Positions 17,355 to 63,316 are shown, numbered from the stretch's first letter. The stretch is DNA of 64,000 nt from Candidatus Latescibacterota bacterium (GCA_965204375.1 OZ241986.1:5728001-5792000), one strand, 5' to 3'. Notes: generated by a model from the sequence alone, not told the origin. Program-made: numbers and translations.

Positions 17355-17381
17355 TCAGTTGCCAGTTGTCAGTTGTCAGTT
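17355..17381 (-). repeat. Heptamer tandem repeat (CAACTGA)x4 just upstream of the vWA start
   Basis: + strand tcagttg-ccagttg-tcagttg-tcagtt; the same unit lies before coaX at 42858-42885. Confidence 0.8.
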
Positions 17382-17406
17382 CCCTGCTCCCGGTCCCTCT
17401 ATTATT

Positions 17407-18207
17407 TTATCTGCGTACATCTGCGTCATCTGCGGATGTTTTTGTCCCTCTGAGCATTTGGTCGCGGTGATAAATCGCGCCGCCCTCGGCATTGCCCACA
17501 CCTCCCAGGCGTCCATTGATGTGGATTTCACCAGCTTGCATTTGTTCGCCGATGTATTTGCCGGCGTCTCCCGAGACTTCAATCCGTCCACCAACCATAC
17601 CTGCGCCCAGATAGTGGCGGACATTTCCCTCGACCTTCAGGCAGCCTCCCATGAGCGAAATGCCCGTGAGGTCGCCCAGGTCGCCCACAATGGTGAGTGT
17701 GATGTCTTTGCGAAGGCGGTATCCCATGAGAGATAGGCGCAAGTCGTGACCTGTGAGATCGAGATGGATTTCCTCTTGGGACGATGCGTTGCAAAAGGCC
17801 GATAAGAACAAGCCCAGGGGTTCCATAACAAAAAAAGCCGCGTCATTACTTTGCAGGGCGTGCGCGCAAAACGCTTCGATATCGGTCATTTCCCAATCGA
17901 TTTGTCCCACGATCTGCGATGCCGCAGCATAGGTCGATTCAATGGTTTTGCGATCGGCTTGCCAGAGTCCCTCGCCGACGCATTCGTCGATCAGTGAGCG
18001 ATAAGCTGCTGTTAACCGATCCATTGTCTCGGTGTGAGATGCGAGAATTTCATCCATGGGCAGGGCGCGCTTTTTGCGCGTATCTTCGACGAATTCGGCG
18101 AAGGGATTGCGCTTTGCGGATAGTAAGCCGTTGACGCGCTCTGCGCTTTCAGGGTTCAAATCGGATGGTGCAATTCGGTCAAATTCTCGAAATGGATTTT
18201 GTCGCAT
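17407..18207 (-). CDS. Hypothetical protein with C-terminal GXGXG beta-helix (FwdC / GltB C-terminal-like)
   Basis: Periodic GDLGDLTG.SLMGG, GNVRHYLGAGMVGG, GDAGKYIGEQMQAG repeats. Confidence 0.75.
   Translation of the reverse strand: MRQNPFREFDRIAPSDLNPESAERVNGLLSAKRNPFAEFVEDTRKKRALPMDEILASHTETMDRLTAAYRSLIDECVGEGLWQADRKTIESTYAAASQIVGQIDWEMTDIEAFCAHALQSNDAAFFVMEPLGLFLSAFCNASSQEEIHLDLTGHDLRLSLMGYRLRKDITLTIVGDLGDLTGISLMGGCLKVEGNVRHYLGAGMVGGRIEVSGDAGKYIGEQMQAGEIHINGRLGGVGNAEGGAIYHRDQMLRGTKTSADDADVRR
17409..17438 (-). repeat. CGCAGAT-core tandem repeat x3 forming the C-terminus of the upstream CDS
   Basis: - strand atccgcagatgacgcagatgtacgcagat(aa); same family at 37908 and 47690. Confidence 0.8.
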
Positions 18208-18222
18208 GTCTGGCTCCTGGAA

Positions 18223-19545
18223 TTACGAAAATTCTGGACGCACAGGCTCTTGGCCCAGATCGCGCATAATTTCCATGTAAATGGGGTGTTCGCCCTGAAT
18301 GGGTTTCTCGTCGGCACCATTCAAGATGTGGTTGGCAGTCATTAGAGCTGTTTGGATGCGTTCGCTTTGCTCGGTATAGCGCCGAAAGACTTGCCGCACT
18401 GCTTCTCGCGCTCTGTGAATGGGCAATACATCATCTCGGTGGTCTTGCGTTTCTTCTTCATCTCGCCATTGAATGCGGTGAGCACAGGTGTATGGCAATA
18501 TCGTGCGGATATGTTCGATATGTACTTCTTTGTCGCGCAGCACCCAGGCGAGTGCCTGTGCGTAGCGCCGGATGGAGATGGGCAGGCGATTGGACGGGCA
18601 TGTTTGTACTTCATAACACAGGTAGCCCGTGTAATGACAGCCTTCGCCACAGACTTCATTTGTGCGTTTTTGTCCGTATTTGCAGCAGAAAGACAATTCG
18701 GCCAAAAAGGTTCGAACATAGGCACTGGCATCGGCCTGGAAAGGCAATGCGCTCATTTCACTGCGAATGGTTTCGCGTTCAGTTCTCCCCAGGGTTGGTA
18801 CGGACAAACGCTCAGAGATCGCTTTTCCATAATCCTCGCAAATCGCTTCTATCTCTGCTTCGGCGTTGGAGTTGACCAGACAGGCCTGGAGTGCTTGCTC
18901 GCGTTGGGGATCTCGCAGGAGATGTGCAGGAGAGGATTCGGTGCCGATCATCCAGGACAAATTCGCGCCCGGATATTTGGATTCCACCATTACGTCAAAG
19001 CGATCCAAAAGGGGGACAACGATGGTATTTGTTCCGCGGTCCTGATAGTTGGCCGTTGCGAACAAACAGTATTCATCGTTGATTTGCATCTGGTTCAGGT
19101 AGGACCAGTTGCCGCGATCCACGCCATTGAGGATCAGGCTCTGCTTGGTTTCCGGCAGGCGGTTGATTTCATCTACGACTTTGACGGGTAGGACGGAAAA
19201 TGCCGACCACACCACATCTTCTTCGCCGCGGTTGAGTGCGCCGAGGTTTGGGCGTCCGACAATTTTTTCTTCGGTCTGTTCGGGATGTCCACTTACTTCG
19301 GCTTCCCACACAGCCCCCAATGGCATGCGGTATAATAGCGCGCCAATATACTCTGCCGATGTTGTTTTGCCCAGGCCGGGTTCGCCTACGATCAGAATTT
19401 TGCCACCTAATAATCCCGTTAGCGCACTGAGCAACAAAGCGGCATTGTGTTTTTGTCCTTCTATCTCCAGGTCTGCCCGGTTAAAATACAACCGATCCTG
19501 GATAAAGGTCAAAATATCGCGTACTGTTTTCTGTAAGTCGGCCAT
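18223..19545 (-). CDS. MoxR-family AAA+ ATPase
   Basis: GEPGLGKTT (Walker A), VVDEINR (Walker B), FATAN, LLDRF. Start trimmed to ATG 19545. Confidence 0.88.
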   Translation of the reverse strand: MADLQKTVRDILTFIQDRLYFNRADLEIEGQKHNAALLLSALTGLLGGKILIVGEPGLGKTTSAEYIGALLYRMPLGAVWEAEVSGHPEQTEEKIVGRPNLGALNRGEEDVVWSAFSVLPVKVVDEINRLPETKQSLILNGVDRGNWSYLNQMQINDEYCLFATANYQDRGTNTIVVPLLDRFDVMVESKYPGANLSWMIGTESSPAHLLRDPQREQALQACLVNSNAEAEIEAICEDYGKAISERLSVPTLGRTERETIRSEMSALPFQADASAYVRTFLAELSFCCKYGQKRTNEVCGEGCHYTGYLCYEVQTCPSNRLPISIRRYAQALAWVLRDKEVHIEHIRTILPYTCAHRIQWRDEEETQDHRDDVLPIHRAREAVRQVFRRYTEQSERIQTALMTANHILNGADEKPIQGEHPIYMEIMRDLGQEPVRPEFS

Positions 19546-19565
19546 GTTTGTTACTCGCGTACGGT

Positions 19566-19632
19566 AACGAATCAACGATAGCAGTTGGGTGGTTGGGCGG
19601 GGTTCGTCTATTCGTCTATTCGTCTATTCGTC
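19566..19632 (-). repeat. Octamer-arm hairpin repeat, copy 1
   Basis: aacgaatcaacgatagcagttggg...gg(ttcgtcta)x3; near-identical to 63217-63269. Confidence 0.85.
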
Positions 19633-20440
19633 CAGCAGAGCGTCGGCGTAGCCATTCGACGGTGAGCAGTAGCAACACGGCAAAGGCGATCAGGAATGTT
19701 GCGACGGCGAGGATGGTCGGGCTGATTTGCTCGCGGATGCCCGCCCACATCTGGCGCGGGATGGTGCGTTGTTCTATGCCGCCCATAAAAAGGACGACAA
19801 CGACTTCGTCGAAAGATGTTGCAAACGCGAAGAGCGCGCCAGAAATAACGCCCGGTGCGATTAGCGGCAGTTGTACTCTGCGGAACGTGAGGATCGGTGA
19901 GGCACCAAGGCTTGCGGCAGCGCGCGTCAGGTTTGTATCAAAGGCGGATAGGGTAGCGGTTACGGTGATTACGACAAATGGCGTGCCCAGTGCGGCGTGG
20001 GATAGGATCAATCCGATGTGGGTCTGTGCGAGGCCCAGGGTTGAGTAAAAAAAGAACATGCCCGCCGCGGAGATGATTACCGGCGTGACCATCGGCGAGA
20101 TCAAGAGTGCCATTGCAAAGCGGCGACCGGGCATGGCGGGGCTGGATAGCCCCAGTGCGGCGAGTGTGCCCAGCGCGGTTGCCAGTGCGGTGGAAGCGAT
20201 GCCGATGATCAGGCTGTTGACCAGCCCGCGTGTCCACAGTTCGTTTTCGATGATCTGTCGATACCAGCGCAGGGAATACGCTTCGGCGTCCAGGTGCAGC
20301 ATGCCTTCGGTGAAGGTGAAGTAGGGTTCGGCGTTGAAGCTCAGGGGTACGATCACCAGAATTGGCGCGATCAGGAACGCGAAGATCAGGGTACAGGAGG
20401 CCAGGTACGCGACCCGGCCAATGTGTTGTGTCGAGATCAT
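19616..20440 (-). CDS. Spermidine/putrescine-type ABC permease (PotC-like)
   Basis: SLRWY, AAASLGASP..TFRRV.LPLI.PG, FATSFDEVVV, TIPRQMW. Confidence 0.9.
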   Translation of the reverse strand: MISTQHIGRVAYLASCTLIFAFLIAPILVIVPLSFNAEPYFTFTEGMLHLDAEAYSLRWYRQIIENELWTRGLVNSLIIGIASTALATALGTLAALGLSSPAMPGRRFAMALLISPMVTPVIISAAGMFFFYSTLGLAQTHIGLILSHAALGTPFVVITVTATLSAFDTNLTRAAASLGASPILTFRRVQLPLIAPGVISGALFAFATSFDEVVVVLFMGGIEQRTIPRQMWAGIREQISPTILAVATFLIAFAVLLLLTVEWLRRRSAGRIDE

Positions 20441-20441
20441 G

Positions 20442-21704: not shown

Positions 21705-21881
21705 TTATCGGCAAGTGCCATGCTTCGTCGCGTTGATATAGTCTCGCATCATGGCTTTACCGGTGTCCACATCGTCAGCATGTATGCACCGGATGGCCTC
21801 TTTTATCAATTCCTCTCGAAAGACCGGGTCGCGCTGAACGCGGACCTTTATCGTCTCTTTGAAATCACATGTAAGTGCCAT
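21705..21881 (-). pseudogene. Truncated addiction-module antitoxin (N-terminal half, HTH missing)
   Basis: 58-aa ORF below the track cutoff: MALTCDFKETIKVRVQRDPVFREELIKEAIRCIHADDVDTGKAMMRDYINATKHGTCR*. Matches my recollection of the MALTRDF...GKA.LRDYINAT antitoxin family but stops before the HTH. Confidence 0.65.
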
Positions 21882-21928
21882 ATCTCTCTGTGGCCTTTTT
21901 CATCAATGTATGCCTGAATTTCAATCAT
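21848..21928 (-). pseudogene. RelE/ParE-type toxin remnant
   Basis: MIEIQAYIDEKG resembles a RelE/HigB killer-protein N-terminus and runs into the antitoxin start after about 15 codons. Confidence 0.45.
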
Positions 21929-21984
21929 GCAAGCCTCACTCTTCGCCCTGTTGGATGAGGAGTTTGAGGTCTGCAGGTGTGATT

Positions 21985-22076
21985 ATAGCGGTACACCATA
22001 TTGTCTCGCCTCATCTGTACGCTTTTGTGCTCTGCTCCGAGGGGATGAATCCGATAGCGGTACACCGTATTGTCTC
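21985..22076. repeat. 23-bp direct repeat with 46-nt spacer
   Basis: atagcggtacaccatattgtctc (21985-22007) and atagcggtacaccgtattgtctc (22054-22076), 1 mismatch. Confidence 0.85.
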
Positions 22077-22196
22077 AGCGTCAACTCGAACTTGTCCTCA
22101 GCACGCTGTTGAGGCAGTATATCCTTAGCCTCCTCATTTATTACAACGCTGACTTCCATACTGATCCAGTAAGTCAATCATGCGGCGGTAATCCTC

Positions 22197-23780
22197 TTAA
22201 TGCTCAAGCATACTCGCCACTTCAAATGCTGCGATGTTGCGGTTCTCACGGCTAAATTCCACTGCGATCAGGTGGATCGGTTCGCCCCGGGCGCGGTATT
22301 TGTCGGCGTAACGTCGCGCCTTTAATTGCGCCATTGCAGCACCTTTGGGAGACATTTCTACCACTTTGAATTCGAACAGGTACACGTTGCCGTTGAATAA
22401 TACGGCCATGTCCAGACAGCCATGACTGCTGTTGTCTTCTACCGTGATATCAAGCCCCAGTGCCGCAAAATAGGAATAAAATACGCTCGCGTAGTAGCCC
22501 TCGTAGTTGGCGATGTCGTTGTTCGTGTACCACTCGTAGGGAATACTGGCGAAGAAGGCGTGGAACAGTGTCTTGAGTCCCTCAAAGTCATTCGCTTCCA
22601 GCAGGCGGTAGAGTTGGACGCTGTTCGCCATCTGGCGAGACGGGTCTTTTACCAGGTAGCGCAACAGACTGCGGTTGAGGCTCTGGCGCACCTCTCGGTT
22701 GGGATAACTTAGTCGGTAAAGGGGCTCGCCGCCCAAATTCTCTTCACTGATAATGGTTAGATAGCCGGTCTGAAACAACAGGGCCTCGGTCGCTATGTCA
22801 TCGACATCGAAGGTCGATAGCAAGTCGCTACTGCCCAACATCTCGTCAAGCGATAGGGAACTGATGCGGCGTTTGAACAGGGTTTCAATCAGGAATGTCG
22901 GCGTGCCAGTCTCAAACCAATAGGCTTCAAAGCTGCGTCTATGGAACAGTAGGAGGATGTCGAAAGGATTATAGACCTTCTCCTCGCCCCGCCAATTATA
23001 GCCGTTGTACCAGTCGCGGATTTGATCGCGGTCCAGACCTGGCAGTTCCGGTGCGAACACCACATCCAGATCCTCTTCAGTGTAGCCGCAGATGGCGGAA
23101 TAGCCTGGATCCATGGTAATGTCGGTCAGGTTGTTGAGGCCAGAGAACAGATGCACCTTGGAGAACTTACTGACGCCTGTGAGAAAGGTGAACTTGACGT
23201 GGGCGTCGTTGTCCTTGATGGTCGCGTACAAACCGCGCAAAAAGTCGCGATTGGCGCGTGCGATCTCTGGCACTTCGAGTGCGTCTAAAATCGGCTTGTC
23301 GTATTCATCTACCAGAACGGCTACAGGTTGTCCGGTAAGGTCGTGCAATGCCTCTATCAGATAGGCGAAACGACCCGGTACTGTCTCGGCCTCGATAACC
23401 ACCCCGGTTCGGCGTTCGATGGCGTTCAATTGATCCATGAGATTCTTTTGTAGATAGCCCGACTCTTTGAAGTTGCCACTGCCAAAGCTCAGACGCAGGA
23501 CAGGATAGCGAACTGACCAATCCCAGCGGTCGTGGATATAAAGTTTCTCGAACAACGGCTCGTTGCCTTCGAACAGTTCCTTCAATGTGTCGAGAAAGAG
23601 GCTCTTGCCAAAGCGGCGCGGGCGCGACAGAAAGTAGTGCTTGCCCTCGTCCATCAACCGCTGGATGTAGACGGTTTTGTCCACGTAATAGTAGCTCTGC
23701 TCGCGAATCTCGCGGAAGGTCTGAATACCGATGGGCAACTTGCGTTTATCTGTCGATAAGTTGGGACTCGGATTTTGCAT
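22197..23780 (-). CDS. AAA-ATPase-like protein with C-terminal PD-(D/E)XK nuclease domain
   Basis: KLPIGIQTF..IR...YYYVDKT, LSRPRRFGKSL, LVDEYDKP, YNPF, YWFETGTPTFL; C-terminal LDMAV...FEFK...A..Q...Y. Confidence 0.92.
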   Translation of the reverse strand: MQNPSPNLSTDKRKLPIGIQTFREIREQSYYYVDKTVYIQRLMDEGKHYFLSRPRRFGKSLFLDTLKELFEGNEPLFEKLYIHDRWDWSVRYPVLRLSFGSGNFKESGYLQKNLMDQLNAIERRTGVVIEAETVPGRFAYLIEALHDLTGQPVAVLVDEYDKPILDALEVPEIARANRDFLRGLYATIKDNDAHVKFTFLTGVSKFSKVHLFSGLNNLTDITMDPGYSAICGYTEEDLDVVFAPELPGLDRDQIRDWYNGYNWRGEEKVYNPFDILLLFHRRSFEAYWFETGTPTFLIETLFKRRISSLSLDEMLGSSDLLSTFDVDDIATEALLFQTGYLTIISEENLGGEPLYRLSYPNREVRQSLNRSLLRYLVKDPSRQMANSVQLYRLLEANDFEGLKTLFHAFFASIPYEWYTNNDIANYEGYYASVFYSYFAALGLDITVEDNSSHGCLDMAVLFNGNVYLFEFKVVEMSPKGAAMAQLKARRYADKYRARGEPIHLIAVEFSRENRNIAAFEVASMLEH

Positions 23781-23833
23781 AATTTTATCCGGTCATTTCA
23801 TGTATCACTTAGATGGGCAGCGCGATACCTCTC

Positions 23834-24940
23834 TTACTGCGCCAGCCAGGCACTGAAGCGCTCGTTCATTTCGTCGATGTGATCGCTCCACCATTCCCAG
23901 GAGTTTCGCAGGGCGCGTTTAGAATTTTGCGGGCTGTTGGGCATGTGGGGGTTCATTTCCACACCCTTTTCGGCGTGTGTCGAGATCAGTGCCTCTGCGG
24001 AGATGCGCGTGGGACTGTAGGCGATGTAACGGCCGACGCCAGCTATGGCTTTCGCCGTTGCGGCGAAATGGAGAAATTTCTTTGCGGCTTCGAGGTTCCG
24101 TGTTCCCGCGACAATGACAAGCCCGCCTGTATCCAGTATTTGCCCGTCCCACACGATGACAAAGGGCTGGTCTTCCAATACCTGTGCATTGAAGATGCGC
24201 CCGTTGTAGGCTGTGCTCATTACTACCTCGCCATCGGCGAGCATTTGCGGTGGCTGTGCTCCAGCTTCCCACCATACGATGTGGTCTTTTATGGTGTCTA
24301 ACTTGCGGAAGGCGCGATCTACGCCTTCGGGCGTATTGAGCGTGGGATATACTTTGTTGAGCGGCACGCCGTCGGCGATTAGCGCGAATTCCAGATTCGC
24401 CAGGGGTGTGCGGCGCATGCCTCTGCGTCCGGGGAATTTTTCGAGGTCAAAGAAGTCAGCCATTGTGGTGGGTTTGTCGCCCTGGATATTCTCTTCGTTG
24501 TACGCATATACGGTGGAGTAAAATATCGTTGCCGGACCGCAATCCGTCATCGTGCCGAGCGGAAAATCCTGTGACGCAGGTGTTCCATCGGCTCCCGCTG
24601 GCAGCGAGTTTACCGGGATGGGTTCGAGCAGGCCCTCATCGCAGCCTCGTACCATGTCGGGAATTTCCATATCGACAATGTCCCAATGCACATTGCCCGA
24701 TTCGACCTGTGCGCGGATTTGTGCCAGCCCGCCGTTGTAGTCTTCGAGGTTGATTTTAATGCCTGTTTCAGCGGTGAACGCCTCGTGGTAGCCTTTGACG
24801 CATGCGCGTGCATAGGAACCACCCCAGGAGACCACGGTTAGCGGTTGATCGCTGGCAACCGCACGATCTGAGGTCAATATCGCCAGTGCGGTCAGTAATG
24901 TTAGATAAAATGCCGTTTTACACTTGTTTTTCCACTTCAA
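23834..24940 (-). CDS. Polyamine-type ABC substrate-binding protein, copy A
   Basis: SWGGSY, WDIVD, FFDLEKFPGRR, LEFALIADGV, AYNGR; TTG start with AAGGAGG RBS; signal peptide ending AVA. Confidence 0.9.
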   Translation of the reverse strand: MKWKNKCKTAFYLTLLTALAILTSDRAVASDQPLTVVSWGGSYARACVKGYHEAFTAETGIKINLEDYNGGLAQIRAQVESGNVHWDIVDMEIPDMVRGCDEGLLEPIPVNSLPAGADGTPASQDFPLGTMTDCGPATIFYSTVYAYNEENIQGDKPTTMADFFDLEKFPGRRGMRRTPLANLEFALIADGVPLNKVYPTLNTPEGVDRAFRKLDTIKDHIVWWEAGAQPPQMLADGEVVMSTAYNGRIFNAQVLEDQPFVIVWDGQILDTGGLVIVAGTRNLEAAKKFLHFAATAKAIAGVGRYIAYSPTRISAEALISTHAEKGVEMNPHMPNSPQNSKRALRNSWEWWSDHIDEMNERFSAWLAQ

Positions 24941-24977: not shown

Positions 24978-26078
24978 TTACTGCGCCAGCCAGGTGCTGA
25001 AGCGTTCGTTCATTTCGTCAATGTGAACGCTCCACCATTCCCAGGCATTTCGCAGGGCGCGCTTAGAATTTTGCGGGCTGTTGGGCATGTGGGGTTTCAT
25101 ATCAACATCCTTTTCGGCGTGTTTCGATATCAGTGCCTCCGCAGAGTGGCGCGTGGGGCTATAGGCGATGTAGCTACCGACACCGGCCATGGCTTTCGCT
25201 GTTGCGGCGAAATTGAGAAACTTCTTTGCGGCTTCGAGGTTCTGCGTTCCCGCGACAATGGCAAGCCCAGATAAATCCAATATTTGCCCGTCCCATACGA
25301 TGACAAAGGGTTGATCTTCCAGTACCTGTGCATTGAAGATGCGTCCGTTGTAGGCTGTGGTCATCACTACCTCGCCATCGGCGAGCATCTGCGGTGGCTG
25401 CGCCCCGGCTTCCCACCATACGATGTGGTCTTTTATGGTGTCCAGCTTGCGGAAGGCGCGATCTACGCCTTCGGGCGTATTGAGGGAGGCATATACCTTG
25501 TTGAGCGGTACGCCGTCGGCGATTAGTGCGAATTCCAGGTTCTCCTGGGGTGAACGGCGCATGCCTCTGCGTCCGGGAAATTTTTCAAGGTCAAAGAAGT
25601 CGGCCATTGTGGTGGGTTTTTCGCCCGGGATATTCTCCTCGTTGTACGCGTATATGGTGGAGTAAAACAGCGTTGCCACGCCACAGTCTGTCGATGTTCC
25701 GAACAGAAAATCCTCTTCCGCAGGCGTTCCATCTGCTCCCGGTGGCAACGAGTCGATCTCAACGCGTTCGAGCAGGCCCTCATCGCAGCCTTGCGCCCAT
25801 GTTGGAAATCTCAAATCGACGACATCCCAATGCACATTGCCCGCTTGAACCTGTGCGCGGATCTGTGCCAGCCCGCCGTTGTAGTCTTCGAGGTTGATTT
25901 TAATGCCTGTTTCAGCGGTGAATGCCTCGTGGTAGCCTTTGACGCAGGCGCGTGCATAAGATCCGCCCCAGGAAACTACGGTCAGGGGTCGATCTTCCAA
26001 AATATCACAGCCCAGAGTCAACATCGCCAGCGCGGTTATTATCGCGGTGCATAATGTTTTTCTCCATTTGGTCTTCAT
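24978..26078 (-). CDS. Polyamine-type ABC substrate-binding protein, copy B (lipoprotein-type signal)
   Basis: Close paralog of copy A; signal ends in the lipobox TLGC. Confidence 0.9.
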   Translation of the reverse strand: MKTKWRKTLCTAIITALAMLTLGCDILEDRPLTVVSWGGSYARACVKGYHEAFTAETGIKINLEDYNGGLAQIRAQVQAGNVHWDVVDLRFPTWAQGCDEGLLERVEIDSLPPGADGTPAEEDFLFGTSTDCGVATLFYSTIYAYNEENIPGEKPTTMADFFDLEKFPGRRGMRRSPQENLEFALIADGVPLNKVYASLNTPEGVDRAFRKLDTIKDHIVWWEAGAQPPQMLADGEVVMTTAYNGRIFNAQVLEDQPFVIVWDGQILDLSGLAIVAGTQNLEAAKKFLNFAATAKAMAGVGSYIAYSPTRHSAEALISKHAEKDVDMKPHMPNSPQNSKRALRNAWEWWSVHIDEMNERFSTWLAQ

Positions 26079-35954: not shown

Positions 35955-37940
35955 ATGAAAATAAAAAAAGAAATATGCCGAGATCTCGATCAGGCGATAG
36001 GGCGGGAGTGGCTTGAGACCAATGGCCTGGGGGGATTTGCGTGTTCGACTATTATTGGGATGAACACGCGGCGGTACCACGGCTTGCTCATTCCCGCACA
36101 AGATGAGTCGCACGGTCGGTTTGTGGCACTGTCCAAATTTGAAGAGACGCTTATCGTGCCCGGCGCAGGGTCTTTTGAACTGAGCAGTAATTGCTACGCT
36201 GGCGTGATTCACCCGAACGGTTATACCCATCTCGAACATGTCCGCCTGGATCCTTTTCCCATCTTTACCTATTGTACTGACGATTTGTGTTTTGAAAAGC
36301 AAATTTTTATGGTCTATGGTCAAAATACCACTGTGATTTCTTACGGTCCTTTTGATCGTTCCGTTATGCTCGCGCTGCGTCCGCTCGCGGCTTTCCGAGA
36401 TTACCATCACCTGATGCGCCAGAATCATTCGCTCAATGGCGATGTCGATATTTGCGATGGTTTGATGAGTTTTCAGCCCTATTCGGAATACCCGCCTTTG
36501 CATATCGCGCACAATGGAGAATTTCAGTCGCGTGGCGATTGGTATTACAATTTTGAATATGCCGTTGAAGCCTATCGCGGTCTGGACAATCGGGAAGACC
36601 TGTATTGTCCCGGAGAATTTACCTTTGATCTCGAAGCGGGCGAATCCGCGCATTTGCTCGTCAGCCTTGAACGCGGTACTTGTGATGAGGTGAATGCGCT
36701 TCGGCAGGCTGAGGTAGATCGCAGAAATAAAATTGTTCAATCAGTTTCCAAATGCACTGGTCTCAGTTTGAGTGCGGATGCGTTTCTCGTTAGACGCAGC
36801 GACGCACGCGCTACTATTATCGCGGGTTATCCCTGGTTTACGGATTGGGGGCGCGATACGATGATTGCGCTGCCAGGTCTGTCGCTGGTGACCGGACGAT
36901 TTGAGGAAGCCCGCGATATTCTCGCTGCGTATGCACATTTTTGCGACAAGGGGGTAATTCCAAACCGTTTTCCCGATTGCGGTGATATACCTGAGTACAA
37001 TAGCGTGGATGCAACCCTGTGGTACGTCTATGCGGTGGATCGCTTTCTGGCGTACACAGATGATTATGCGTTTATGCGCGAAAATCTCTGGCGAGTGCTC
37101 CAGGAGATCATTCACTATTTTGTTCGGGGAACGCGCTATAATATTCATCTGGATTGCGATGGGTTGCTCTATGCCGGGGAACCCGGTGTGCAACTGACAT
37201 GGATGGATGCTAAGGTAGGAGATTGGGTCGTTACTCCGCGGCAGGGCAAACCCGTTGAGGTCAATGCGCTGTGGTACAATGCGCTGTGTGTGATGCGGAA
37301 TCTGGCTGACAGATATGGCAAATCCGATCTCAGTGTCGAATACGCTGGCCTTGCGGAAAAAACAGCCGCGAGTTTCGCGGAGGCATTTTGGAACCCCAGT
37401 GCTGGATGTCTGTACGATTGTCTGACCGATACGGTGTCCGATGCGGCAATTCGTCCGAATCAGATTTTTGCCCTCAGCCTGCCGCATCGCATGCTCGATG
37501 CCGTGCGTGAACGCAGTATTCTCAATGTGGTCGAACGCGAGTTGTTCACGCCTTATGGTTTGCGAAGTCTATCGCCGTCCGACGCGGCATACAGGGGCAC
37601 TTATGGCGGCGACCCATGTAGTCGCGATGGCGCGTATCATCAGGGGACGGTTTGGGCATGGCTTATGGGGCCGTTCATTACTTCATGGGTTCGCATTCAT
37701 GGCAAGGAGGCAGGTGTTCGTGCTAATGCAAGACGTATGTTGCGCCCTTTGTTGCGGCATGTTGAAGCGTCAGGCCTGGGACATATTTCTGAAATTTTCG
37801 ATGGCGACCCGCCCCATGCATCTCGCGGTTGCTTTGCCCAGGCTTGGAGTACTGCGGAAGTTTTGCGTGCTTTTGTGGAAGATGTGCTGGATCAGGGACC
37901 TGAAAAAAATCCGCAGATGGACGCAGATGGACGCGGATGA
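35955..37940 (+). CDS. Amylo-alpha-1,6-glucosidase (glycogen debranching enzyme, GDE N and C domains)
   Basis: EWLETNGLGG, TRRYHGLL, IAGYPWFTDWGRDTMI, TWMDA, GKPVEVNALWY, YHQGTVW, QAWS. Confidence 0.93.
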   Translation: MKIKKEICRDLDQAIGREWLETNGLGGFACSTIIGMNTRRYHGLLIPAQDESHGRFVALSKFEETLIVPGAGSFELSSNCYAGVIHPNGYTHLEHVRLDPFPIFTYCTDDLCFEKQIFMVYGQNTTVISYGPFDRSVMLALRPLAAFRDYHHLMRQNHSLNGDVDICDGLMSFQPYSEYPPLHIAHNGEFQSRGDWYYNFEYAVEAYRGLDNREDLYCPGEFTFDLEAGESAHLLVSLERGTCDEVNALRQAEVDRRNKIVQSVSKCTGLSLSADAFLVRRSDARATIIAGYPWFTDWGRDTMIALPGLSLVTGRFEEARDILAAYAHFCDKGVIPNRFPDCGDIPEYNSVDATLWYVYAVDRFLAYTDDYAFMRENLWRVLQEIIHYFVRGTRYNIHLDCDGLLYAGEPGVQLTWMDAKVGDWVVTPRQGKPVEVNALWYNALCVMRNLADRYGKSDLSVEYAGLAEKTAASFAEAFWNPSAGCLYDCLTDTVSDAAIRPNQIFALSLPHRMLDAVRERSILNVVERELFTPYGLRSLSPSDAAYRGTYGGDPCSRDGAYHQGTVWAWLMGPFITSWVRIHGKEAGVRANARRMLRPLLRHVEASGLGHISEIFDGDPPHASRGCFAQAWSTAEVLRAFVEDVLDQGPEKNPQMDADGRG

Positions 37941-37970
37941 ACTGTGCTGGATCAGGGACCTGAAAAATGA
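37883..37970 (+). repeat. 25-bp duplication of the gene 3' end enclosing a CGCAGAT-core repeat
   Basis: tgtgctggatcagggacctgaaaaa at 37883-37907 and 37943-37967; 35-nt insert aatccgcagatggacgcagatggacgcggatgaac. Confidence 0.92.
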
Positions 37971-39598: not shown

Positions 39599-40438
39599 AT
39601 GGATCACACTTTTGAACAGAATTGCACGGTGTCTTATAAGGTTCTCAGTCCCAATACCCGCGGATCAGATCACCATTACGAAATAGATGTCTGTGCATCG
39701 GCAGAGGAGTTGCGGCAATTTGACCGGGAAGGGTATCTGGTGCGCGAGGGATTGTTTGCGGGCGAGGACTTGAAAGCATTGCAAGACGCGCTGGATCGGT
39801 TGGAGGATCGGGAATCGGGTGCGTTTCGAGATACTGGAAAGCGGTCTTGGGGGCGTATCCCGCGGCATTTGATGGACAAGGATCCGGTGTTTTTGGATTT
39901 GTTGAAGTTTTCTCCTGTACTATCAGTGGCGCGGGCGATGATGGGGCCACTGGTCAGGCTTCGGGGATTGAGCGCGCGGATCAGTTATCCGGCTGAAACG
40001 CCTCATCAGACCCCATGGCACCAGCATTTGCGCGTGGTTTCCAATCCTTTGCCGCCGTGGTTTTCCAGACCACATGGGATAGATGCTCTGATTTATCTGG
40101 ATGATTTGAATGAGGATACGGGGGCTGTGGGAATTGTGCCGGGGTCGCACAATTGGTTGGATAGAGCACCGCCTCCCGATACTTATGAGCCGGTTGAGGG
40201 CGAGCTTGTGGTCCGCGTGAAGGCCGGGGGCGGCGTGTTGATTCACAGCAATCTCTGGCATCGCGGATTGCCGACGTTGAGAACAAAGCGCAGGATGTTG
40301 ATTTTGAGTTATACGCCCACCTGGTTGCGCCGATCACCCCACGGGGGACCGCCACCCGGCGACGGGTTGACGCAGGCGATTTTAGAAGGCGATGACGAGG
40401 AGGCGCGTATTTTGTTGGGTAAAGGTGGATATACTTAG
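39599..40438 (+). CDS. Phytanoyl-CoA dioxygenase (PhyH) family protein
   Basis: FDREGYLV, WHQH, IYLDD, VPGSH, LWHRG...R; HxH instead of HxD. Confidence 0.85.
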   Translation: MDHTFEQNCTVSYKVLSPNTRGSDHHYEIDVCASAEELRQFDREGYLVREGLFAGEDLKALQDALDRLEDRESGAFRDTGKRSWGRIPRHLMDKDPVFLDLLKFSPVLSVARAMMGPLVRLRGLSARISYPAETPHQTPWHQHLRVVSNPLPPWFSRPHGIDALIYLDDLNEDTGAVGIVPGSHNWLDRAPPPDTYEPVEGELVVRVKAGGGVLIHSNLWHRGLPTLRTKRRMLILSYTPTWLRRSPHGGPPPGDGLTQAILEGDDEEARILLGKGGYT

Positions 40439-40545
40439 AAGTGTGAAGTGTGAAGGTTGAAGTGTGAAGAAGCATCCGCTCTGGGGGTGTGTTGGGCGGA
40501 CTTCTAACTTCTAACTTCTAACTTCTAACTTCTAACTTCTTACTT
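40438..40545 (+). repeat. Heptamer-arm hairpin (GAAGTGT)n ... (ACTTCTA)n
   Basis: Left arm 40438-40472; inner stem TCCGCTC/GGGCGGA; right arm 5 perfect ACTTCTA plus 1 variant (40500-40541). Confidence 0.9.
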
Positions 40546-40564: not shown

Positions 40565-42733
40565 ATGAGCAGGGTAGCAGTTGGAGAATTGAATGTAGAT
40601 GCCGCGCTCTACGCATTGGTCAAAGACGAAATTGCGCCCGATACGGGCGTGGATGCAGAGGTTTTTTGGCAGGGGTTGGAAGAGATTGTAAGAGATCTGG
40701 GGCCGGAGAACCGGCGTTTATTGGAGAAACGCGATGTTTTGCAGGCTAAGATCGATGCCTGGCATAAGGGGCGCGAATCTATTGATGGGGAAGCGTACAG
40801 GGCATTTTTGCAGGAGATCGGGTATTTATTGCCCGAAGGGGATCATTTTCAGGTGTTGACAAATGGCGTTGATCCAGAGGTTGCGACAGTGGCGGGACCG
40901 CAACTGGTCGTGCCGGTGGATAATGCGCGTTATTGTTTGAATGCGGCCAATGCGCGCTGGGGCAGTTTGTACGATGCGGTGTATGGGACAGATGTGATTC
41001 CGGAGGATGATGGCGCGGATAAGGGAACGGCTTATAATCCCGTGCGCGGTGAGAAGGTGATTGCCAGAGCGAATGAATTTTTGGATGAGACTGTGCCGCT
41101 GTCCAATGGGTCTTATGTAGCAGTGACGGCGTTTGCTCTGGGTGAAGAGGGCGAGCAGAAGGTGCTCATCGCAGAGGTTGATGGTCGGGGTACAGGGCTG
41201 TCAGACCCGCATCAGTTTGTGGGTTATGCGGAGCGAGATGGGGCACTGTCCAGCGTGTTGTTGGCGCACAATGGGTTGCATATTGAGATTCAGATTGATC
41301 CGGGCCATCCCATTGGCAAAGACCATCCGGCAGGGGTGAAAGATGTGGTGCTGGAATCAGCAATTACCACGATTCAGGATTGTGAGGATTCCGTATCGGC
41401 TGTGGATGCCGCGGACAAGGTGCTCGTGTATCGCAACTGGTGCGGTTTGATGAAGGGGACGCTGGAGACGACTTTTGAAAAGAATGGACAACCTCTGAAT
41501 CGCAAATTGAATCCCGATAGGAATTATATCCGTCCAGATGGCGGTGCGTTGACATTGCCGGGGCGAAGCACGTTGCTGGTGCGAAATGTGGGTATTCACA
41601 TGTACACCGATGCGGTGACGACTGCCAACGGAGAGGCGATTCCCGAAGGGTTTCTGGATGTGATGGTAACGTCGCTGGCGGCTATTCACGATTTGAAGGG
41701 CAATGGCGTGTTTCAAAATAGCCGCTCGGGCAGCGTGTATATCGTAAAGCCCAAGATGCACGGTCCCGAAGAGGTGGCGGCGACGGTAGAATTATTCGGG
41801 CGTGTGGAAGATGCGCTTGGACTTGAGAGAAATACGCTGAAGATCGGGATTATGGATGAGGAACGGCGCACGACTGTCAATTTGAAACGCGCTATGTGGG
41901 AGGCCCGAGAGCGCGTCATTTTTATCAATACGGGATTTTTGGATCGCACGGGTGATGAGATGCACACGAGTATGGAAGCCGGTGCTATGCTTCCCAAGAA
42001 TGAAATTAAGGCGCAGCCGTGGTTGTCGGCTTATGAAGATTGGAATGTGGATGTGGGGATTGAGACGGGGTTGATCGGCAAAGGGCAAATTGGCAAGGGT
42101 ATGTGGGCGATGCCCGATGCGATGCGGGAGATGGTGGAGACGAAGATGAATCACCCCGAAGCAGGGGCGACTACTGCGTGGGTTCCTTCGCCGACGGCAG
42201 CCACATTGCATGCGATGCACTACCATCAGGTGAATGTTTCGGCGCGGCAGGCAGAACTCGCGAGGCGAGAACGCGCGAGTCTGGAGGCGATTTTGACGCC
42301 GCCTTTGCTGGATAGGGATCTGACGGCTGAGGAGATCGCGCAGGAATTGGATAATAACGCGCAGGGTATTTTGGGTTATGTGGTGCGCTGGGTCGATCAG
42401 GGTGTTGGCTGTTCTAAGGTGCCCGATATTCACGATGTAGGTCTGATGGAAGATCGCGCGACATTGCGTATTTCGAGCCAGCATATTGCCAACTGGCTGC
42501 ATCACGGGATTGTGAGTGCAGAGCAAGTCCGCGAGACTTTTGAGAAGATGGCAGCGGTTGTCGATCGGCAGAATGCGGGCGATCCGGCGTATCGCAATAT
42601 GGCTCCAAATTTTGATGAGAGTATTGCGTTTCAAGCGGCGCTCGATCTGGTTTTCAAGGGTCGCGAAGTGCCCAATGGATATACTGAACCGGTTTTACAC
42701 GTGCGACGGCGAGAGGTGAAGGGGGAAGTGTGA
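40565..42733 (+). CDS. glcB: Malate synthase G
   Basis: [73 protein letters not shown]. Confidence 0.97.
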
Positions 42734-42886
42734 AGTAGGAAGTGTGAAGGGTGAAGGGGGATTTCACACTAAGACACAAAGACGCAAAGATATAAGGGGA
42801 AGGTAAGAGGCAAAGAGGGGCTGGAGACTGGGGGCTGGGGCTGAGGAGGTGGTTGGGACTGACAACTGACAACTGGCTACTGAACT
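42715..42886 (+). repeat. Stack of several short tandem-repeat families in the glcB-coaX junction
   Basis: GAAGTGT/GAAGTAG units, cacactaagacacaaagacgcaaag, GGGGCTG-like units, and (ACTGACA)-like x4 before the ATG. Confidence 0.8.
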
Positions 42887-47589: not shown

Positions 47590-47591
47590 GA

Positions 47592-47711
47592 GAAGTGTGA
47601 AGTAGGAAGTGTGAAGTGTGAAGTAGGAAGTGTGGAACGATGTACAATTGGTCGCATTCCAGACCAATTCACTGTGAAGAAGCACCCGCCATCTGCGTTC
47701 ATCTGCGGATG
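47592..47711 (+). repeat. Composite: GAAGTGT/GAAGTAG x6, 38-nt hairpin, ATCTGCG arm
   Basis: Heptamers 47592-47633; AATTGGTC-N8-GACCAATT (47646-47669); catctgcgttcatctgcggat (47690-47710). Confidence 0.85.
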
Positions 47712-55454: not shown

Positions 55455-55456
55455 AG

Positions 55457-62123: not shown

Positions 62124-62134
62124 TTCTGTGTTCC

Positions 62135-63166
62135 TCACAGACCCACTGTGCTCGATGCGAGCCACAAATGGGGATGTGTTTCCAATATCAAATCTGCTAC
62201 TTTTTGCACGGCCTTTTTTACCCCCCAGGTGGGGCGTGGCTGACCCATTGGTGCCAGTCTGAGCAATAGCTGATTGTTTTTGCGAAATAAGAGGGATATG
62301 CCGAAATACTGGGCGAGTTCTCCTTCGCGTACCATGACTGAGATGAGGCCGTGATTGTCGGGCAGTTGGCAGTAGATGTCTGTCATCTTAATCACGGTCT
62401 GCATATCCCGATGGTTTTCGCGCCACACTTGATCTGTGGCATGTTCGATAAGTGTCAGAATATCTTTGCGTTGGTATGCGCCTTCTAATACGATATTTGG
62501 CATTTTTCCTACCTTTTGAATGCGCGTTTCGACTGATAGTTCCGATTCCCGACGCCAGACAAAATAGTGGATGGGTACGCCCGCATCTATTGCCTTTTGT
62601 TCGTATTTGGTTGGGGTACGTCCGGGCAACTGGTGAACAGATGAGGTTTCGTAAATAGATTGCAGGTGCGATTGTCGCGTCAATATATCGGTGATCCAGG
62701 CTGCGTAGTCTGCGTGGTCTGTCGCTATGGTTACTTCGCCACCCGGTTTTAAGCGCTCGGCCAGTATTTTTACAAACACATCTTGAATCAGACGCCGATT
62801 GTGGTGTCGCTCTTTGGGCCATGGATCTGAGAAATTGATCCATATCTCCGATAGGGATTGCGGGGCAAATACGTGTTGTAATAAAAATGCGGCGTCGCCC
62901 TCTATTGCGCGCACGTGATTTAATTTCAGGGCGTTTAACCGCTTGAATAATCGACGCATGGATCCCCAGGCGCGTTCGATTCCGACAAAACACGCATCGG
63001 AACGCGCTGCTGCCATATCGGATAGAAAATGCCCATTGCCAAATCCGATTTCGAGCAAGAGATCGTCTGGCCGATCAAAAATCTGTTGCCAGTCTATCGG
63101 CCAATCCAGTTGCAGCCATGGGACTGTGTATTTTTGTATTTCCGCGCTTAACGGTAGAGACATCAT
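62135..63166 (-). CDS. trmB: tRNA (guanine-N7)-methyltransferase with C-terminal extension
   Basis: LEIGFGNG, NFSDPWPKERH..RRL, ATDHADY, TKYE.K. Confidence 0.9.
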   Translation of the reverse strand: MMSLPLSAEIQKYTVPWLQLDWPIDWQQIFDRPDDLLLEIGFGNGHFLSDMAAARSDACFVGIERAWGSMRRLFKRLNALKLNHVRAIEGDAAFLLQHVFAPQSLSEIWINFSDPWPKERHHNRRLIQDVFVKILAERLKPGGEVTIATDHADYAAWITDILTRQSHLQSIYETSSVHQLPGRTPTKYEQKAIDAGVPIHYFVWRRESELSVETRIQKVGKMPNIVLEGAYQRKDILTLIEHATDQVWRENHRDMQTVIKMTDIYCQLPDNHGLISVMVREGELAQYFGISLLFRKNNQLLLRLAPMGQPRPTWGVKKAVQKVADLILETHPHLWLASSTVGL

Positions 63167-63177
63167 GTGTTATACCT

Positions 63178-63316
63178 GCGAATCGGCGAATCAGCGAATC
63201 AACGAATCAACGAATCAACGAATCAACGATAGCAGTTGGGGGTAGGGTGGGGTTCGTCTATTCGTCTATGAACTGGCCTGAGAGGCGGCCAGTTGTACCC
63301 CGCTCCGTCTATTCGT
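63178..63316 (-). repeat. Octamer-arm hairpin repeat, copy 2, with embedded 38-nt hairpin
   Basis: (RCGAATCR)x6 at 63178-63225, core shared with 19566, TTCGTCTA units, AACTGGCC-N8-GGCCAGTT (63271-63294). Confidence 0.88.

Follow-up and report, generated by a model that had tools for sequence, protein, structure and literature searches.

The stop codons of ordinary genes in this Candidatus Latescibacterota genome (G000) carry small, fast-changing insertions of 7–10-letter tandem repeats, and they do so genome-wide. Seven such sites lie in the window, the 64,000-nt stretch of DNA analysed here, and we give a probability of roughly 0.6 to the reading that they are genus-wide small insertion elements, non-autonomous or decayed relatives of IVS-like small-gene cassettes that enter at gene ends. 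Their anatomy, stop-codon bias, loops in either orientation, presence/absence polymorphism and association with genes are observed. Tandem Repeats Finder detected arrays at all seven junctions (7/7) listed in the first-pass annotation, a reading made from the sequence alone, each between co-oriented genes. Genome-wide there were 945 non-redundant tandem arrays, of which eight core-motif families hold 465, spread over 340 gene junctions. The annotation's claim that such sites avoid convergent and divergent junctions is true of the window but not of the genome, where arrays occur at 5.7% of co-oriented, 10.5% of convergent (58/555) and 8.3% of divergent (46/555) junctions; with 46 co-oriented, 5 divergent and 5 convergent junctions in the window, the chance of seven co-oriented sites in seven is about 0.23 by our own hypergeometric arithmetic. 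Arrays of GAAGTGT were found in 17 of the 21 genomes of the genus set and, in a search of 110 genomes from elsewhere in the class, in 0.

The complete hairpin at 40.4 kb (40434..40545, + strand) consists of GAAGTGT x4.6 (40438–40469), a G-rich loop and ACTTCTA x6.6 (40500–40545); its first unit yields the TAG stop of a PhyH-family gene, and downstream comes malate synthase G with its RBS and start ATG. Filled in 3 and empty in 9 of 12 congener loci, it is a single block within an otherwise identical junction, the empty allele reading ..ATATACTTGAgttt.. and the filled one ..ATATACTT[element]Gtttc... The hairpin at 63.2 kb (63167..63320, − strand) begins, read as transcribed, 6 nt past the stop with a ACGAATAG arm that is split by a second, small hairpin (AACTGGCC..GGCCAGTT) nested in it; behind this lie a loop with the C-rich box and the other arm, TTGATTCG x6.4 (63179–63229), which ends 12 nt short of the ATG of a methyltransferase gene. 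On the given strand the arrays are CGAATCAA x6.4 at 63179–63229 and a second one at 63253–63269. Both G000 and its sister genome G008, about 93% identical, carry an element at this junction (j4780), with different nested inserts. At 19.6 kb (19546..19635, − strand) the TAG stop (19616–19618) of an ABC permease gene (19616–20440) comes from a ACGAATAG x3.8 arm (19603–19632; TTCGTCTA x3.8 as given); beyond this arm come a loop with the C-rich box CCCCGCCCAACCACCC and roughly a single TTGATTCG unit, and the next ATG is 21 nt further on. This site is filled in G000 and in G018, where it has 12 units and nested inserts, and empty, with a different gene 3' end, in G008, G015, G010 and G009.

At 17.4 kb (17353..17436, − strand) two arrays are separated by a spacer and are not complementary: a CGCAGATGnA array (17409–17434; ATCTGCGTAC x2.7 as given) makes the last codons and TAA stop (17407–17409) of gene 17407–18207, and a single nucleotide separates an AACTGAC x4 array (17354–17381; GTCAGTT x4.0 as given) from the ATG that opens gene 15829–17352. 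Filled alleles of this junction occur in G018, G008 and G009, empty ones in G015 and G010. At 37.9 kb (37883..37967, + strand) a CGCAGATGGA x2.8 array (37912–37939) within a 35-nt insert provides the TGA stop (37938–37940) of a glycogen-debranching gene, and 25 nt of the gene's 3' end are repeated without mismatch on either side of the insert (37883–37907 and 37943–37967), bearing out the 3'-end duplication noted at the outset; G018, G008, G015 and G010 are empty here and G009 has a different filled form. The composite junction at 42.8 kb (42716..42883, + strand) begins with a GTGAAGG/GGGAAGT array (42716–42756) that provides the TGA stop of malate synthase G (42731–42733) and continues with ACACAAAG x3.1 (42766–42790), GGGGCTG x3.4 (42817–42840) and ACTGACA x3.7 (42858–42883), the last of which leaves about 5 nt to the ATG of a pantothenate kinase gene; it differs in nearly every congener, the emptiest alleles being 66 nt. 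At 47.6 kb (47590..47710, + strand) a GAAGTGT/GAAGTAG array (47592–47634) begins 2 nt past a TGA stop and is followed by a small nested hairpin (AATTGGTC..GACCAATT) and a ATCTGCGTTC ATCTGCGGAT pair (47691–47710); the next gene probably has its conserved start at ATG 47727. G008 shares this element, at this stop G015 and G009 have GGAATTA repeats instead, and the alleles of G018 and G010 are empty. Thus five sites (17.4, 19.6, 37.9, 40.4 and 42.8 kb), rather than the four first counted, have an array-supplied stop. Right-hand arrays end near the next start, as had been described, at distances of 1 nt (17.4 kb), about 5 nt (42.8 kb), 12 nt (63.2 kb), 16 nt (47.6 kb) and 19–21 nt (40.4 and 19.6 kb).

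Placement relative to stop codons was also biased across the genome, judged against genes from our own crude codon-usage caller, in which stops are unambiguous and starts less certain. At co-oriented junctions 120 of 198 purine-rich arrays, versus 2 of 105 pyrimidine-rich ones, lay at most 3 nt from the upstream gene end (Fisher p 6.5e-28), which upholds the proposal that left-type arms start at or within the upstream stop; pyrimidine-rich right arms ended within 3 nt of the next start at 19 of 105 sites. Of 352 gene ends, 117 had their stop codon within an array, and at a further 53 the array began 0–3 nt away. Short operon spacers would allow selection alone to hold any insertion near a stop codon, which counts against our reading; at the 160 of 236 co-oriented junctions with at least 60 nt of free spacer, less than 5% of that space lay on the stop side for 74 elements and more than 95% for 10 (KS p 9e-28).

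The order of paired arms was uniform. Same-family arm pairs were ordered purine-then-pyrimidine in 64 cases and in reverse in 0, and the loops of complete hairpins, read along transcription, were G-rich in 18 and C-rich in 15. Any palindrome of purine arm, loop and pyrimidine arm gives a left-type/right-type pattern on either strand, so the polarity towards transcription first ascribed to whole elements is explained by this constant build and does not stand. Sub-motifs are indeed common to families: one G-rich box (TTTGGGnGGnTGGGCGGGG) or its complement recurs in the loops of different families, and whole arm–loop–arm units with this box were found at dozens of unrelated junctions, copies being 82–92% identical across about 100 nt. 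The hairpin label fits some sites and not others. RNA folding was better than in shuffles at three of the seven, namely 40.4 kb (z −5.9; −47.8 kcal/mol, equalled by 0 of 200 shuffles), 63.2 kb (−2.1) and 19.6 kb (−1.9), but not at 17.4 kb (−1.0), 37.9 kb (−0.1), 42.8 kb (−0.8) or 47.6 kb (+1.2). These four sites count against our reading, as do the 174 lone arrays in co-oriented junctions, many sites not being palindromes. Intrinsic Rho-independent terminators (GC-rich stem plus T run) were rejected as an identity for the arrays, since none of the terminator-like sites in 37–48.5 kb (10 versus 11.5 expected) coincided with an array on the sense strand; one antisense-strand site (37928–37909) overlaps an array region. 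Rfam gave 0 matches at gathering score in the whole window.

In support of the original proposal, comparison with congeners revealed filled and empty alleles at many junctions, among them every window junction but that at 63.2 kb, where both G000 and G008 carry an element. Across 322 junctions mapped between these two genomes, arrays were present only in G000 at 18, only in G008 at 10 and in both at 5, so that 28 of 33 array-bearing junctions are not shared with the sister. Insertion at gene ends, another of the original claims, agrees with breakpoints that lay −9 to +13 nt from the stop end in 20 of 22 non-divergent pairs having a stop. Different species can carry different families at the same stop codon (42.8 and 47.6 kb). 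Insertion junctions were mixed, being clean, replaced or accompanied by a 16–25-nt duplication; exact flank duplications of at least 12 nt occurred at 6 of 340 junctions (control 0; lengths 12–25), and short ones such as ACTT at 40.4 kb are inseparable from arm sequence. No regular target duplication was apparent, which also counts against our reading.

Two families of tiny genes were found between arms of the same kind. The sole IVP gene of G000 (four-helix-bundle, PF05635, 23S IVP) is preceded by a GAAGT arm that begins in the upstream stop codon and followed by about 18 ACTTCAC units finishing at the next ATG, and the sole full GxxExxY gene (TIGR04256) has CAGGATG/ATCCTG hairpin elements on both sides, standing between tandem whole elements. 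The association with these families, put forward in the first-pass annotation, was recovered across the phylum: among the loci scored, repeats complementary to each other (z ≥ 3) flanked 22 of 30 for IVP and 16 of 30 for GxxExxY, versus 5 of 150 random small genes, although the two counts overstate independent cases because many loci are orthologous copies. No known transposase is encoded by either family; the GxxExxY product has a PD-(D/E)XK nuclease fold, matching PF13366 (PDDEXK_3) at E 1e-38. That arms of one kind enclose both families suggests a mobile element of a sort not described before. At the IVP junction the arms hold different cargo from one congener to another: the gene is present in G000 and G002, an IVP remnant in G009, a toxin–antitoxin pair in G004, G015 and G006, small hairpins in G014, other arrays in G012 and G013 and almost nothing in G018. 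Against our reading, IVP was found in only 7 of 21 congeners, at one copy per genome (GxxExxY has 1–3), and GAAGTGT pattern matches do not track it, numbering 7 in G002 versus 236 in G000 despite the same IVP element.

The complete form is an imperfect palindrome of 7–10-nt tandem repeats, rapidly gained and lost. Its purine-rich 5' arm (GAAGTGT, ACGAATAG, CGCAGATGnA or CAGGATG units) has stops in all frames, since its period is not divisible by three, its loop of about 30 nt holds the common G-rich or C-rich box, and its 3' arm is pyrimidine-rich (ACTTCnn, TTCGTCTA/TTGATTCG, ATCTGCG). Such an element could enter either way round because a palindrome is the same on both strands, and a gene running into it in either orientation would still end at once. 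Entry would take place at stop codons or within about 15 nt of them, often replacing the native stop and sometimes replacing or duplicating the gene's last bases, after which the arms may lengthen, shorten, decay and take up nested inserts. Since the same kind of arms surround the IVP and GxxExxY genes, the gene-less copies may be to IVS-like cassettes what MITEs are to transposons, moving as units, mobilised by a cassette protein, most plausibly the nuclease, and, where intact, folding in polycistronic mRNA. A wider version, which we hold only tentatively and consider rather doubtful, would make the IVP and GxxExxY PD-(D/E)XK nuclease genes autonomous members of one undescribed mobile class, a small gene between inverted tandem-repeat arms whose units are read by an oligomeric cassette protein, homing to the first bases past a stop or, in the classical 23S IVS, to an rRNA tetraloop; gene-less hairpins, lone arrays and, by extension, cyanobacterial STRR/TAACTGA-type repeats would be its MITE-like offspring and debris.

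Several features could instead suit host-selected intercistronic RNA structures that regulate operons through translational coupling, REP-like mRNA stabilisation or RNase III processing. Every window site is within a co-oriented gene run, and the foot of the strongly folding 40.4 kb stem adjoins the stop codon and RBS; in the coupling version, a terminating ribosome would melt the left arm and free the leader of the next gene. The 19 right arms that end within 3 nt of a start would fit, as would a G008 insertion that splits an overlapping TGATG stop/start (j5145), which a stem would rejoin, and a role as translational signals has been proposed for analogous TAACTGA repeats that lie immediately before start codons (PMC4679880). 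We nevertheless judge this explanation unlikely, because turnover relative to the sister genome is far too fast for conserved regulators, sister species have other families or nothing at the same stop, four window sites fold no better than shuffles, and convergent and divergent junctions also hold elements.

Even less probable, in our estimation, is growth in place by replication slippage from short native gene-end motifs, with no mobile element. Unit counts do vary between orthologous copies (3.8 versus 12 at 19.6 kb, 18 versus 8 at the IVP locus), and native ends can look like units, as with GGTGAAGGG at 42.8 kb, GGAATAA and AGACG, and ACAACTGA at j4929, where G000 carries ACTGACA repeats; this microhomology counts against our reading to the extent that part of the arrays could have grown in place. 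Slippage leaves unexplained, however, the complementary second arms and their 64:0 order, the one loop box at dozens of unrelated junctions, the similarity of copies over about 100 nt and the single-block insertion at 40.4 kb. We give similarly little credence to the idea that the arms might be recombination sites of a cassette system, by analogy with integron attC, which would exchange IVP, GxxExxY and toxin–antitoxin genes and leave gene-less hairpins as vacated sites. The varied cargo at the IVP junction, with an ACTTCAC-like right arm kept in most congeners, and the position of the GxxExxY gene between whole hairpins would be in keeping with it, but toxin–antitoxin cassettes at three window junctions in congeners (28128|28125, 29399|29464 and 50950|50943) are without arms, and about 340 gene-less sites stand against one IVP and one full GxxExxY gene in G000.

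Under the preferred reading of small insertion elements related to cassettes, one of the closest described systems would be the 23S rRNA IVS with an S23p/IVP ORF, known from Coxiella, Leptospira and Xanthomonas, whose stems are cleaved by RNase III and which is regarded as selfish, its mobility unknown (PMC4990558). In both the IVS and the IVP element here, complementary ends form a long stem whose loop contains a small gene for a four-helix-bundle protein (PF05635); an IVP ORF between complementary termini occurs in one element of G000 and at the 22 scored phylum loci noted above, the gene-less copies having no ORF. Unlike 23S IVSs, which have unique inverted repeats, the elements here lie between or even inside protein-coding genes, nearly all are without a gene, and their arms are tandem 7–10-mers starting at stop codons. 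Insertion in 23S helix 9, 25 or 45, which marks an IVS, is ruled out, as the genome's single 23S gene contains no tandem arrays.

The repeats also resemble TAACTGA heptamers, direct repeats of Beggiatoaceae, Cyanobacteria and Bacteroidetes that are intergenic, at gene boundaries, and give forward-sense stops in all three frames; among them are cases overlapping an upstream stop, many leave a single nucleotide before a start, strains differ in 7-nt steps, and nearly all are direct (one inverted case) and mostly beside start codons (MacGregor 2015, PMC4679880). Both sets include tandem heptamers that lie at gene boundaries and bring a stop in each frame, and the window's ACTGACA unit, when rotated, is one base off TAACTGA, the only unit so close. 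The elements here differ in having several unit families, palindromic pairs with conserved loops, a stop bias and ties to two small gene families. Cyanobacterial STRR repeats are likewise intergenic heptamer arrays concentrated at gene boundaries; a match to described STRR/TAACTGA unit sequences was rejected, the units here being GAAGTGT, ACGAATAG, CGCAGATGnA and CAGGATG.

REP/BIME sequences, and REPINs with their RAYT transposases, are short palindromic extragenic repeats present in hundreds of copies, non-autonomous and in lineage-specific families. Dispersed short imperfect palindromes in many copies (340 junctions, 64 arm pairs) are found in extragenic space here too, and both are common after genes in transcribed spacers, but what sets the present elements apart is their overlap with stop codons and their arms built of tandem repeats; a Y1/RAYT search (PF01797) gave 0 matches in G000 and, as a control, matched 6 of 14 reference genomes. 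MIRUs are operon-oriented tandem repeats of intercistronic regions whose ends overlap the upstream stop and downstream start, with units of 40–100 bp that encode short ORFs and are not palindromic. Overlap with the upstream stop is shared, the 7–10-nt units and palindromic build are not, and we know of no link between MIRUs and IVP or nuclease genes. As small gene-less inverted-repeat insertions that are polymorphic among close relatives, the elements are also similar to MITEs, but no fixed-length target duplication or matching transposase was found for them, and their arms are made of tandem repeats of variable number. An ordinary TIR-type MITE has also inserted in congeners, on TAAG at stop codons.

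Throughout the G000 genome (the source of the window; 6.34 Mb, a single contig, 51% G+C), we detected short tandem arrays whose complete form is a purine-rich arm, a loop and a pyrimidine-rich arm. Tandem Repeats Finder (TRF) returned 945 non-redundant arrays of period 6–11, and 465 of these fall in eight core-motif families: GAAGT/ACTTC (171 arrays), GCAGAT/ATCTGC (113), CGAAT/ATTCG (73), CAGGAT/ATCCTG (40), and four smaller families (68 together). The eight-family arrays sit at 340 gene junctions (236 co-oriented, 58 convergent, and 46 divergent) against a genomic background of 4124, 555, and 555, respectively, in a gene set of 5235 genes (90% coding density) from a simple codon-usage caller trained on G000, in which stops are unambiguous and starts less certain. 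The first-pass annotation had placed arrays between co-oriented genes only, but the per-junction rates of 10.5% (convergent), 8.3% (divergent), and 5.7% (co-oriented) show that the claimed avoidance is wrong genome-wide; with 46 of 56 window junctions co-oriented, including that at 63.2 kb, seven co-oriented sites out of seven would be expected about 23% of the time.

The proposed attraction to stop codons was strongly borne out by array positions across G000. Where the flanking genes are co-oriented, an array begins no more than 3 nt from the end of the upstream gene in 120 of 198 cases if it is purine-rich and in 2 of 105 if it is pyrimidine-rich (Fisher p 6.5e-28). Array-bearing junctions are bordered by 352 gene 3' ends; 117 of these have their stop codon inside an array, and a further 53 are followed by an array starting 0–3 nt past the stop. 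The skew persists where an element at a co-oriented junction leaves 60 nt or more of other spacer (160 junctions): the share of this spare space on the stop side is below 5% for 74 elements and above 95% for 10 (KS p 9e-28), so the bias is not only a squeeze from short spacers. Of the 58 elements between convergent genes, 41 touch a stop and 11 touch both; of the 46 between divergent genes, 5 are no more than 3 nt, and 20 no more than 30 nt, from a gene.

Same-family array pairs no more than 150 nt apart always run from purine-rich to pyrimidine-rich arm (64 pairs, with none in reverse order). Because such a palindrome reads alike on both strands, a gene running into an element always meets the arm with stops in three frames, and a gene leaving it is always preceded by the G-poor arm. 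The loop reveals the true orientation, as it contains either a G-rich box (TTTGGGnGGnTGGGCGGGG) or its complement; at co-oriented junctions we counted 18 G-rich and 15 C-rich loops (p 0.73), so complete elements are unpolarised relative to transcription. Lone arrays are skewed, with 123 in the stop-bearing sense and 51 in the other (p 5e-8), a bias expected if stop-abutting arrays arise, or are tolerated, in that sense only. Sub-motifs are shared between families, as had been noticed, since the loop box is common to the GAAGT, CGAAT, and CAGGAT families, so that these are either related or draw on one module.

Within the window, TRF found arrays at all seven junctions noted in the first pass, each between co-oriented genes, and the sequence there reads as first described. 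At five of them, read along the transcribed strand, the first array extends over the upstream stop and supplies it: 17.4 kb (..CGCAGATAA), 19.6 kb (..GACGAATAG), 37.9 kb (..GCGGATGA), 40.4 kb (..ACTTAGAAGTG), and 42.8 kb (..GAAGTGTGA); at 47.6 and 63.2 kb it starts 2 and 6 nt past the stop, respectively. Between the second arrays and the next start codon 1 to 21 nt remain, close as proposed, and the 3'-end duplication reported for some sites is present at 37.9 kb, where the array is flanked by a perfect 25-nt copy of the gene 3' end. The gene that follows the 47.6 kb junction probably starts at ATG 47727, conserved together with its GGAG box in all congeners, and not at the in-element ATGs further upstream (47640 or 47709). 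RNA folding justified the term hairpin strongly at 40.4 kb (−47.8 kcal/mol, z −5.9) and modestly at 63.2 kb (z −2.1) and 19.6 kb (z −1.9), while the other four sites did not fold better than shuffles. An Rfam scan of the whole window gave no match, and a terminator and promoter scan of 37–48.5 kb found no excess and neither signal in the sense-strand arrays. The surrounding genes serve housekeeping and carbohydrate metabolism and are nothing unusual (e.g., glycogen debranching enzyme, apiosidase-like hydrolase, PhyH dioxygenase, malate synthase G, type III pantothenate kinase, and an ABC permease).

The arms at 63.2 and 47.6 kb contain small, unrelated nested hairpins. These belong to a separate module of 28–40 nt (GAACTGGCC..GGCCAGTT, then GTACCCCGYTCCG) that is recurrently nested within 8-mer arms, in the window at 63270–63297 and 47637–47672 and at many further loci. 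Other modules recurring at such junctions are a hairpin family GTAGGGGCG..CGCCC and a 'CATGCCGCAATGAC' module. Several tiny repeat families collect at gene ends, as in a dump.

Comparison with twenty congeneric genomes, most of them 90–95% identical to G000 in the compared regions and the most distant four about 80–84%, revealed the anticipated filled and empty alleles, both at window junctions and across G000–G008 synteny. The 40.4 kb element is present at 3 of 12 congener loci and absent from 9. Its empty allele reads ..ATATACTTGAgttt(c/t)caaaggag..ATG, and the filled allele carries the block AGAAGTGT...ACTTCTTACTT between ACTT and G, with an element TAG in place of the native TGA and the protein end unaltered. 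In a malate synthase tree, which is poorly resolved (5 of 9 inner branches unresolved), the three filled alleles do not form one clade and need 3 changes, at least 2 of them forced, so this pattern may reflect repeated gain, precise loss, or recombination. The other junctions vary as well: 17.4 kb is filled in G000, G018, G008, and G009 and empty in G015 and G010; 19.6 kb is filled in G000 and G018 and empty in four genomes, where the gene 3' end is different; and 37.9 kb is filled in G000 and G009 and empty in four. At 47.6 kb, a GAAGTGT array (G000, G008) and a GGAATTA array (G015, G009) occupy exactly the same stop codon, with empty alleles in G018 and G010, and at 42.8 kb the allele differs in almost every genome, the emptiest being 66 nt. 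Assembled contigs of four sequencing runs from related strains (three RNA, one DNA) include none that bridges the 40.4 kb element and two that bridge junctions, each in its own allele (empty or other).

Over about 560 kb of G000–G008 synteny, in which 322 of 469 junctions were mapped, arrays occur in G000 only at 18 junctions, in G008 only at 10, and in both at 5. Of the 22 pairs at non-divergent junctions with a recognisable stop, 20 have the main alignment gap opening −9 to +13 nt from the stop end of the empty allele. Insertion boundaries in this comparison are heterogeneous: clean and directly past the TGA at junction j5006, with the last codons and spacer replaced at j4742, j4962, and j5039, and with 16–25 nt of the gene end duplicated at j4853, as at 37.9 kb. 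Flank duplications of at least 12 nt are rare, occurring at 6 of 340 junctions, compared with 0 in shuffled pairing.

Within the genus, a GAAGTGT-type pattern search found repeat-built elements in 17 of 21 genomes; it found none in the 110 other genomes searched in the class. The G000 chromosome has 48 matches on the forward strand and 188 on the reverse, whereas congeners have 2–38 where the pattern is present and none in G032, G001, G017, and G011; a count so far above every congener points to recent expansion in G000, and the matches there are asymmetric between the strands. The elements are lineage-restricted, repeat-built palindromes and arrays that are rapidly gained and lost at or on stop codons in either orientation.

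Their architecture is common to the arms around two small-gene families, the four-helix-bundle 23S IVP-like family (IVP, PF05635) and the GxxExxY family (TIGR04256), an association put forward in the first pass and found here in G000, the genus, and the phylum. G000 encodes one IVP (122 aa, L001:1471–1839; Pfam E 1e-25); the stop codon of its upstream neighbour is the first unit of a GAAGT arm, and about 18 ACTTCAC-type units fill the span from the IVP stop to the next ATG. The one full TIGR04256 gene of G000 (128-aa product; L114:200–586, minus strand) is flanked by whole CAGGATG/ATCCTG hairpin elements, the first downstream one beginning directly at the gene's stop. The GxxExxY protein matches PDDEXK_3 (PF13366, E 1e-38), a PD-(D/E)XK nuclease-fold family whose function is given as unknown in a survey (PMC3424549), and no sequence relatives were found in the PDB. 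Seven of the 21 genomes of the genus carry one IVP copy each; one weak match adjoins a reverse-transcriptase-like ORF and is probably an accessory gene of a DGR, and all others are enclosed by complementary heptamer arms of three different unit types. Phylum-wide, IVP was matched in 52 of 168 genomes and GxxExxY in 63. Complementary flanks (z ≥3, upstream against downstream flank, 200 shuffles) were present at 22 of 30 IVP loci (32 extracted, 2 dropped for short flanks) and 16 of 30 GxxExxY loci (31 extracted, 1 dropped), counts that are not independent events because many loci are orthologous copies, compared with 5 of 150 random small genes of G000 (none dropped). IVP arm units are lineage-specific 7–8-mers and those of GxxExxY mostly 8–10-mers.

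At the junction that holds IVP in G000 and G002, the content between the arms varies among congeners, and an ACTTCAC-like arm before the downstream ATG is kept in most: G009 (locus L107) has an IVP deleted from about its 40th base into the first bases of the downstream gene, leaving the left arm and IVP start region joined to the downstream ORF; G004, G015, and G006 have a toxin-antitoxin pair, G014 small hairpins, G012 and G013 other arrays, and G018 almost nothing. Elsewhere, an IVP gene with CAGTGGC/GCCACTG arms splits an apparent single gene into two ORFs at one conserved position (..NLFVIFGEPDI / VHGVDVFxPxTGE.., the slash marking the insertion point; loci L037 in G001, L038 in G017, L067 in G077, L069 in G123, L071 in G071, and L072 in G130). 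Genomes of four families of the class share it, which marks it as an 'intervening sequence' long and stably established within a protein-coding gene. Array pairs in the kilobase range in G000 were also considered as further cargo cassettes and rejected, being arrays of neighbouring junctions around ordinary genes (e.g., cupin).

We consider it very probable that these are insertion elements of stop-codon-proximal sites rather than conserved regulators or products of chance. Our overall reading, to which we assign a probability of roughly 0.6, is that the gene-less elements are non-autonomous or decayed derivatives of small-gene cassettes resembling intervening sequences (IVS), moved or seeded by a cassette protein. 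Such elements would derive from IVP and GxxExxY cassettes, the PD-(D/E)XK-fold GxxExxY protein being the best candidate for the mover, and slippage may later lengthen and shorten the arms. With stops in all frames of the 5' arm and a start-free, G-poor 3' arm, insertion at a gene end is nearly harmless, so such copies survive. Intact copies such as that at 40.4 kb would have to fold within the polycistronic transcript, where the cell might cut them, as RNase III cuts 23S IVS stems (PMC4990558), or might use them for coupling. Against a simple cassette origin, there are very few gene-bearing copies for some 340 sites, and GAAGTGT load does not track the presence of IVP: the pattern matches 236 times in G000 and 7 times in G002, although both genomes have the IVP element. 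Armless toxin-antitoxin cassettes and a MITE with terminal inverted repeats also occupy stop/start junctions in congeners, so gene ends are a general safe harbour in these compact genomes. RAYT-driven mobility was rejected because G000 lacks a Y1/RAYT transposase, and a reverse-transcriptase origin, raised by variable duplications resembling target-primed insertion, was dropped when no link to the elements was found, as both reverse transcriptases of G000 contain maturase and HNH domains and are group II intron proteins of the ordinary kind.

Boundary heptamer repeats (STRR, TAACTGA) and ORF-bearing 23S rRNA IVS have been known for decades, and we know of no explanation of their origin or mechanism. 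MITEs and MIRUs are also among the closest described systems. ORF-bearing IVS resemble the arm-flanked IVP loci in that a gene of the IVP family occupies the loop of their terminal stem; they differ in sitting in rRNA and in having unique arms. No 23S rRNA IVS with arrays was found in G000. The TAACTGA and STRR arrays are likewise heptamer-type repeats at gene boundaries, though in the best-studied genome (PMC4679880) they are single-unit, direct, and start-proximal. REP/REPIN elements differ in that G000 has no RAYT. Full-text literature searches, with most subscription journals outside their reach, found descriptions neither of IVP or GxxExxY cassettes with repeat arms nor of repeat palindromes or hairpins targeted to stop codons. 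The genus offers a tractable natural experiment, with 21 genomes, dozens of clean filled/empty junctions, several arm families, and two candidate cassette proteins, of which one has a nuclease fold. Should the derivation from IVP/GxxExxY cassettes prove true, two widespread families of 'unknown function' would gain a role, and three separately described repeat phenomena would be connected. On the practical side, the elements alter stop codons and C-termini by rewriting them, and they break genome assemblies of these bacteria, which are associated with corals and sponges; runs containing the window stretch are mainly coral and sponge metagenomes.

The putative toxin-antitoxin-like cassettes lie between tight or overlapping genes, with no repeat arms, in G015, G010, G018, G008, and G009, at orthologues of window junctions 28128/28125, 29399/29464, 50950/50943, 5274/5361, and 58111/58154; at 29399/29464, G000 has only a short remnant. 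Named by inspection of translations and not by family search, their ORFs include a nucleotidyltransferase with a HEPN-like ORF, an 87-aa ORF paired with a PIN-like 140-aa ORF, a ribbon-helix-helix-like 76-aa ORF, and a 77-aa ORF. The MITE is an ordinary one of about 190–260 nt with terminal inverted repeats AGAGACTGTTTTAAAA ... TTTTAAAACAGCTTCT, found in G015 (locus L025, orthologue of 32316/32334, and at 43642/43639) and in G018 (2000/2017); it is inserted at TAAG-like sites that coincide with or adjoin stops, and G000 lacks it at these sites. Window positions 21724–23794 (including a 527-aa ORF at 22197–23780 and a 540-nt spacer) have no counterpart in the syntenic regions of five congeners. 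The adjacent paralogues at 23834–24940 and 24978–26024 cross-match at 86–89% identity in the congener comparison, and a third copy (366-aa ORF) is present at 26024/26075 in G018 and G015.
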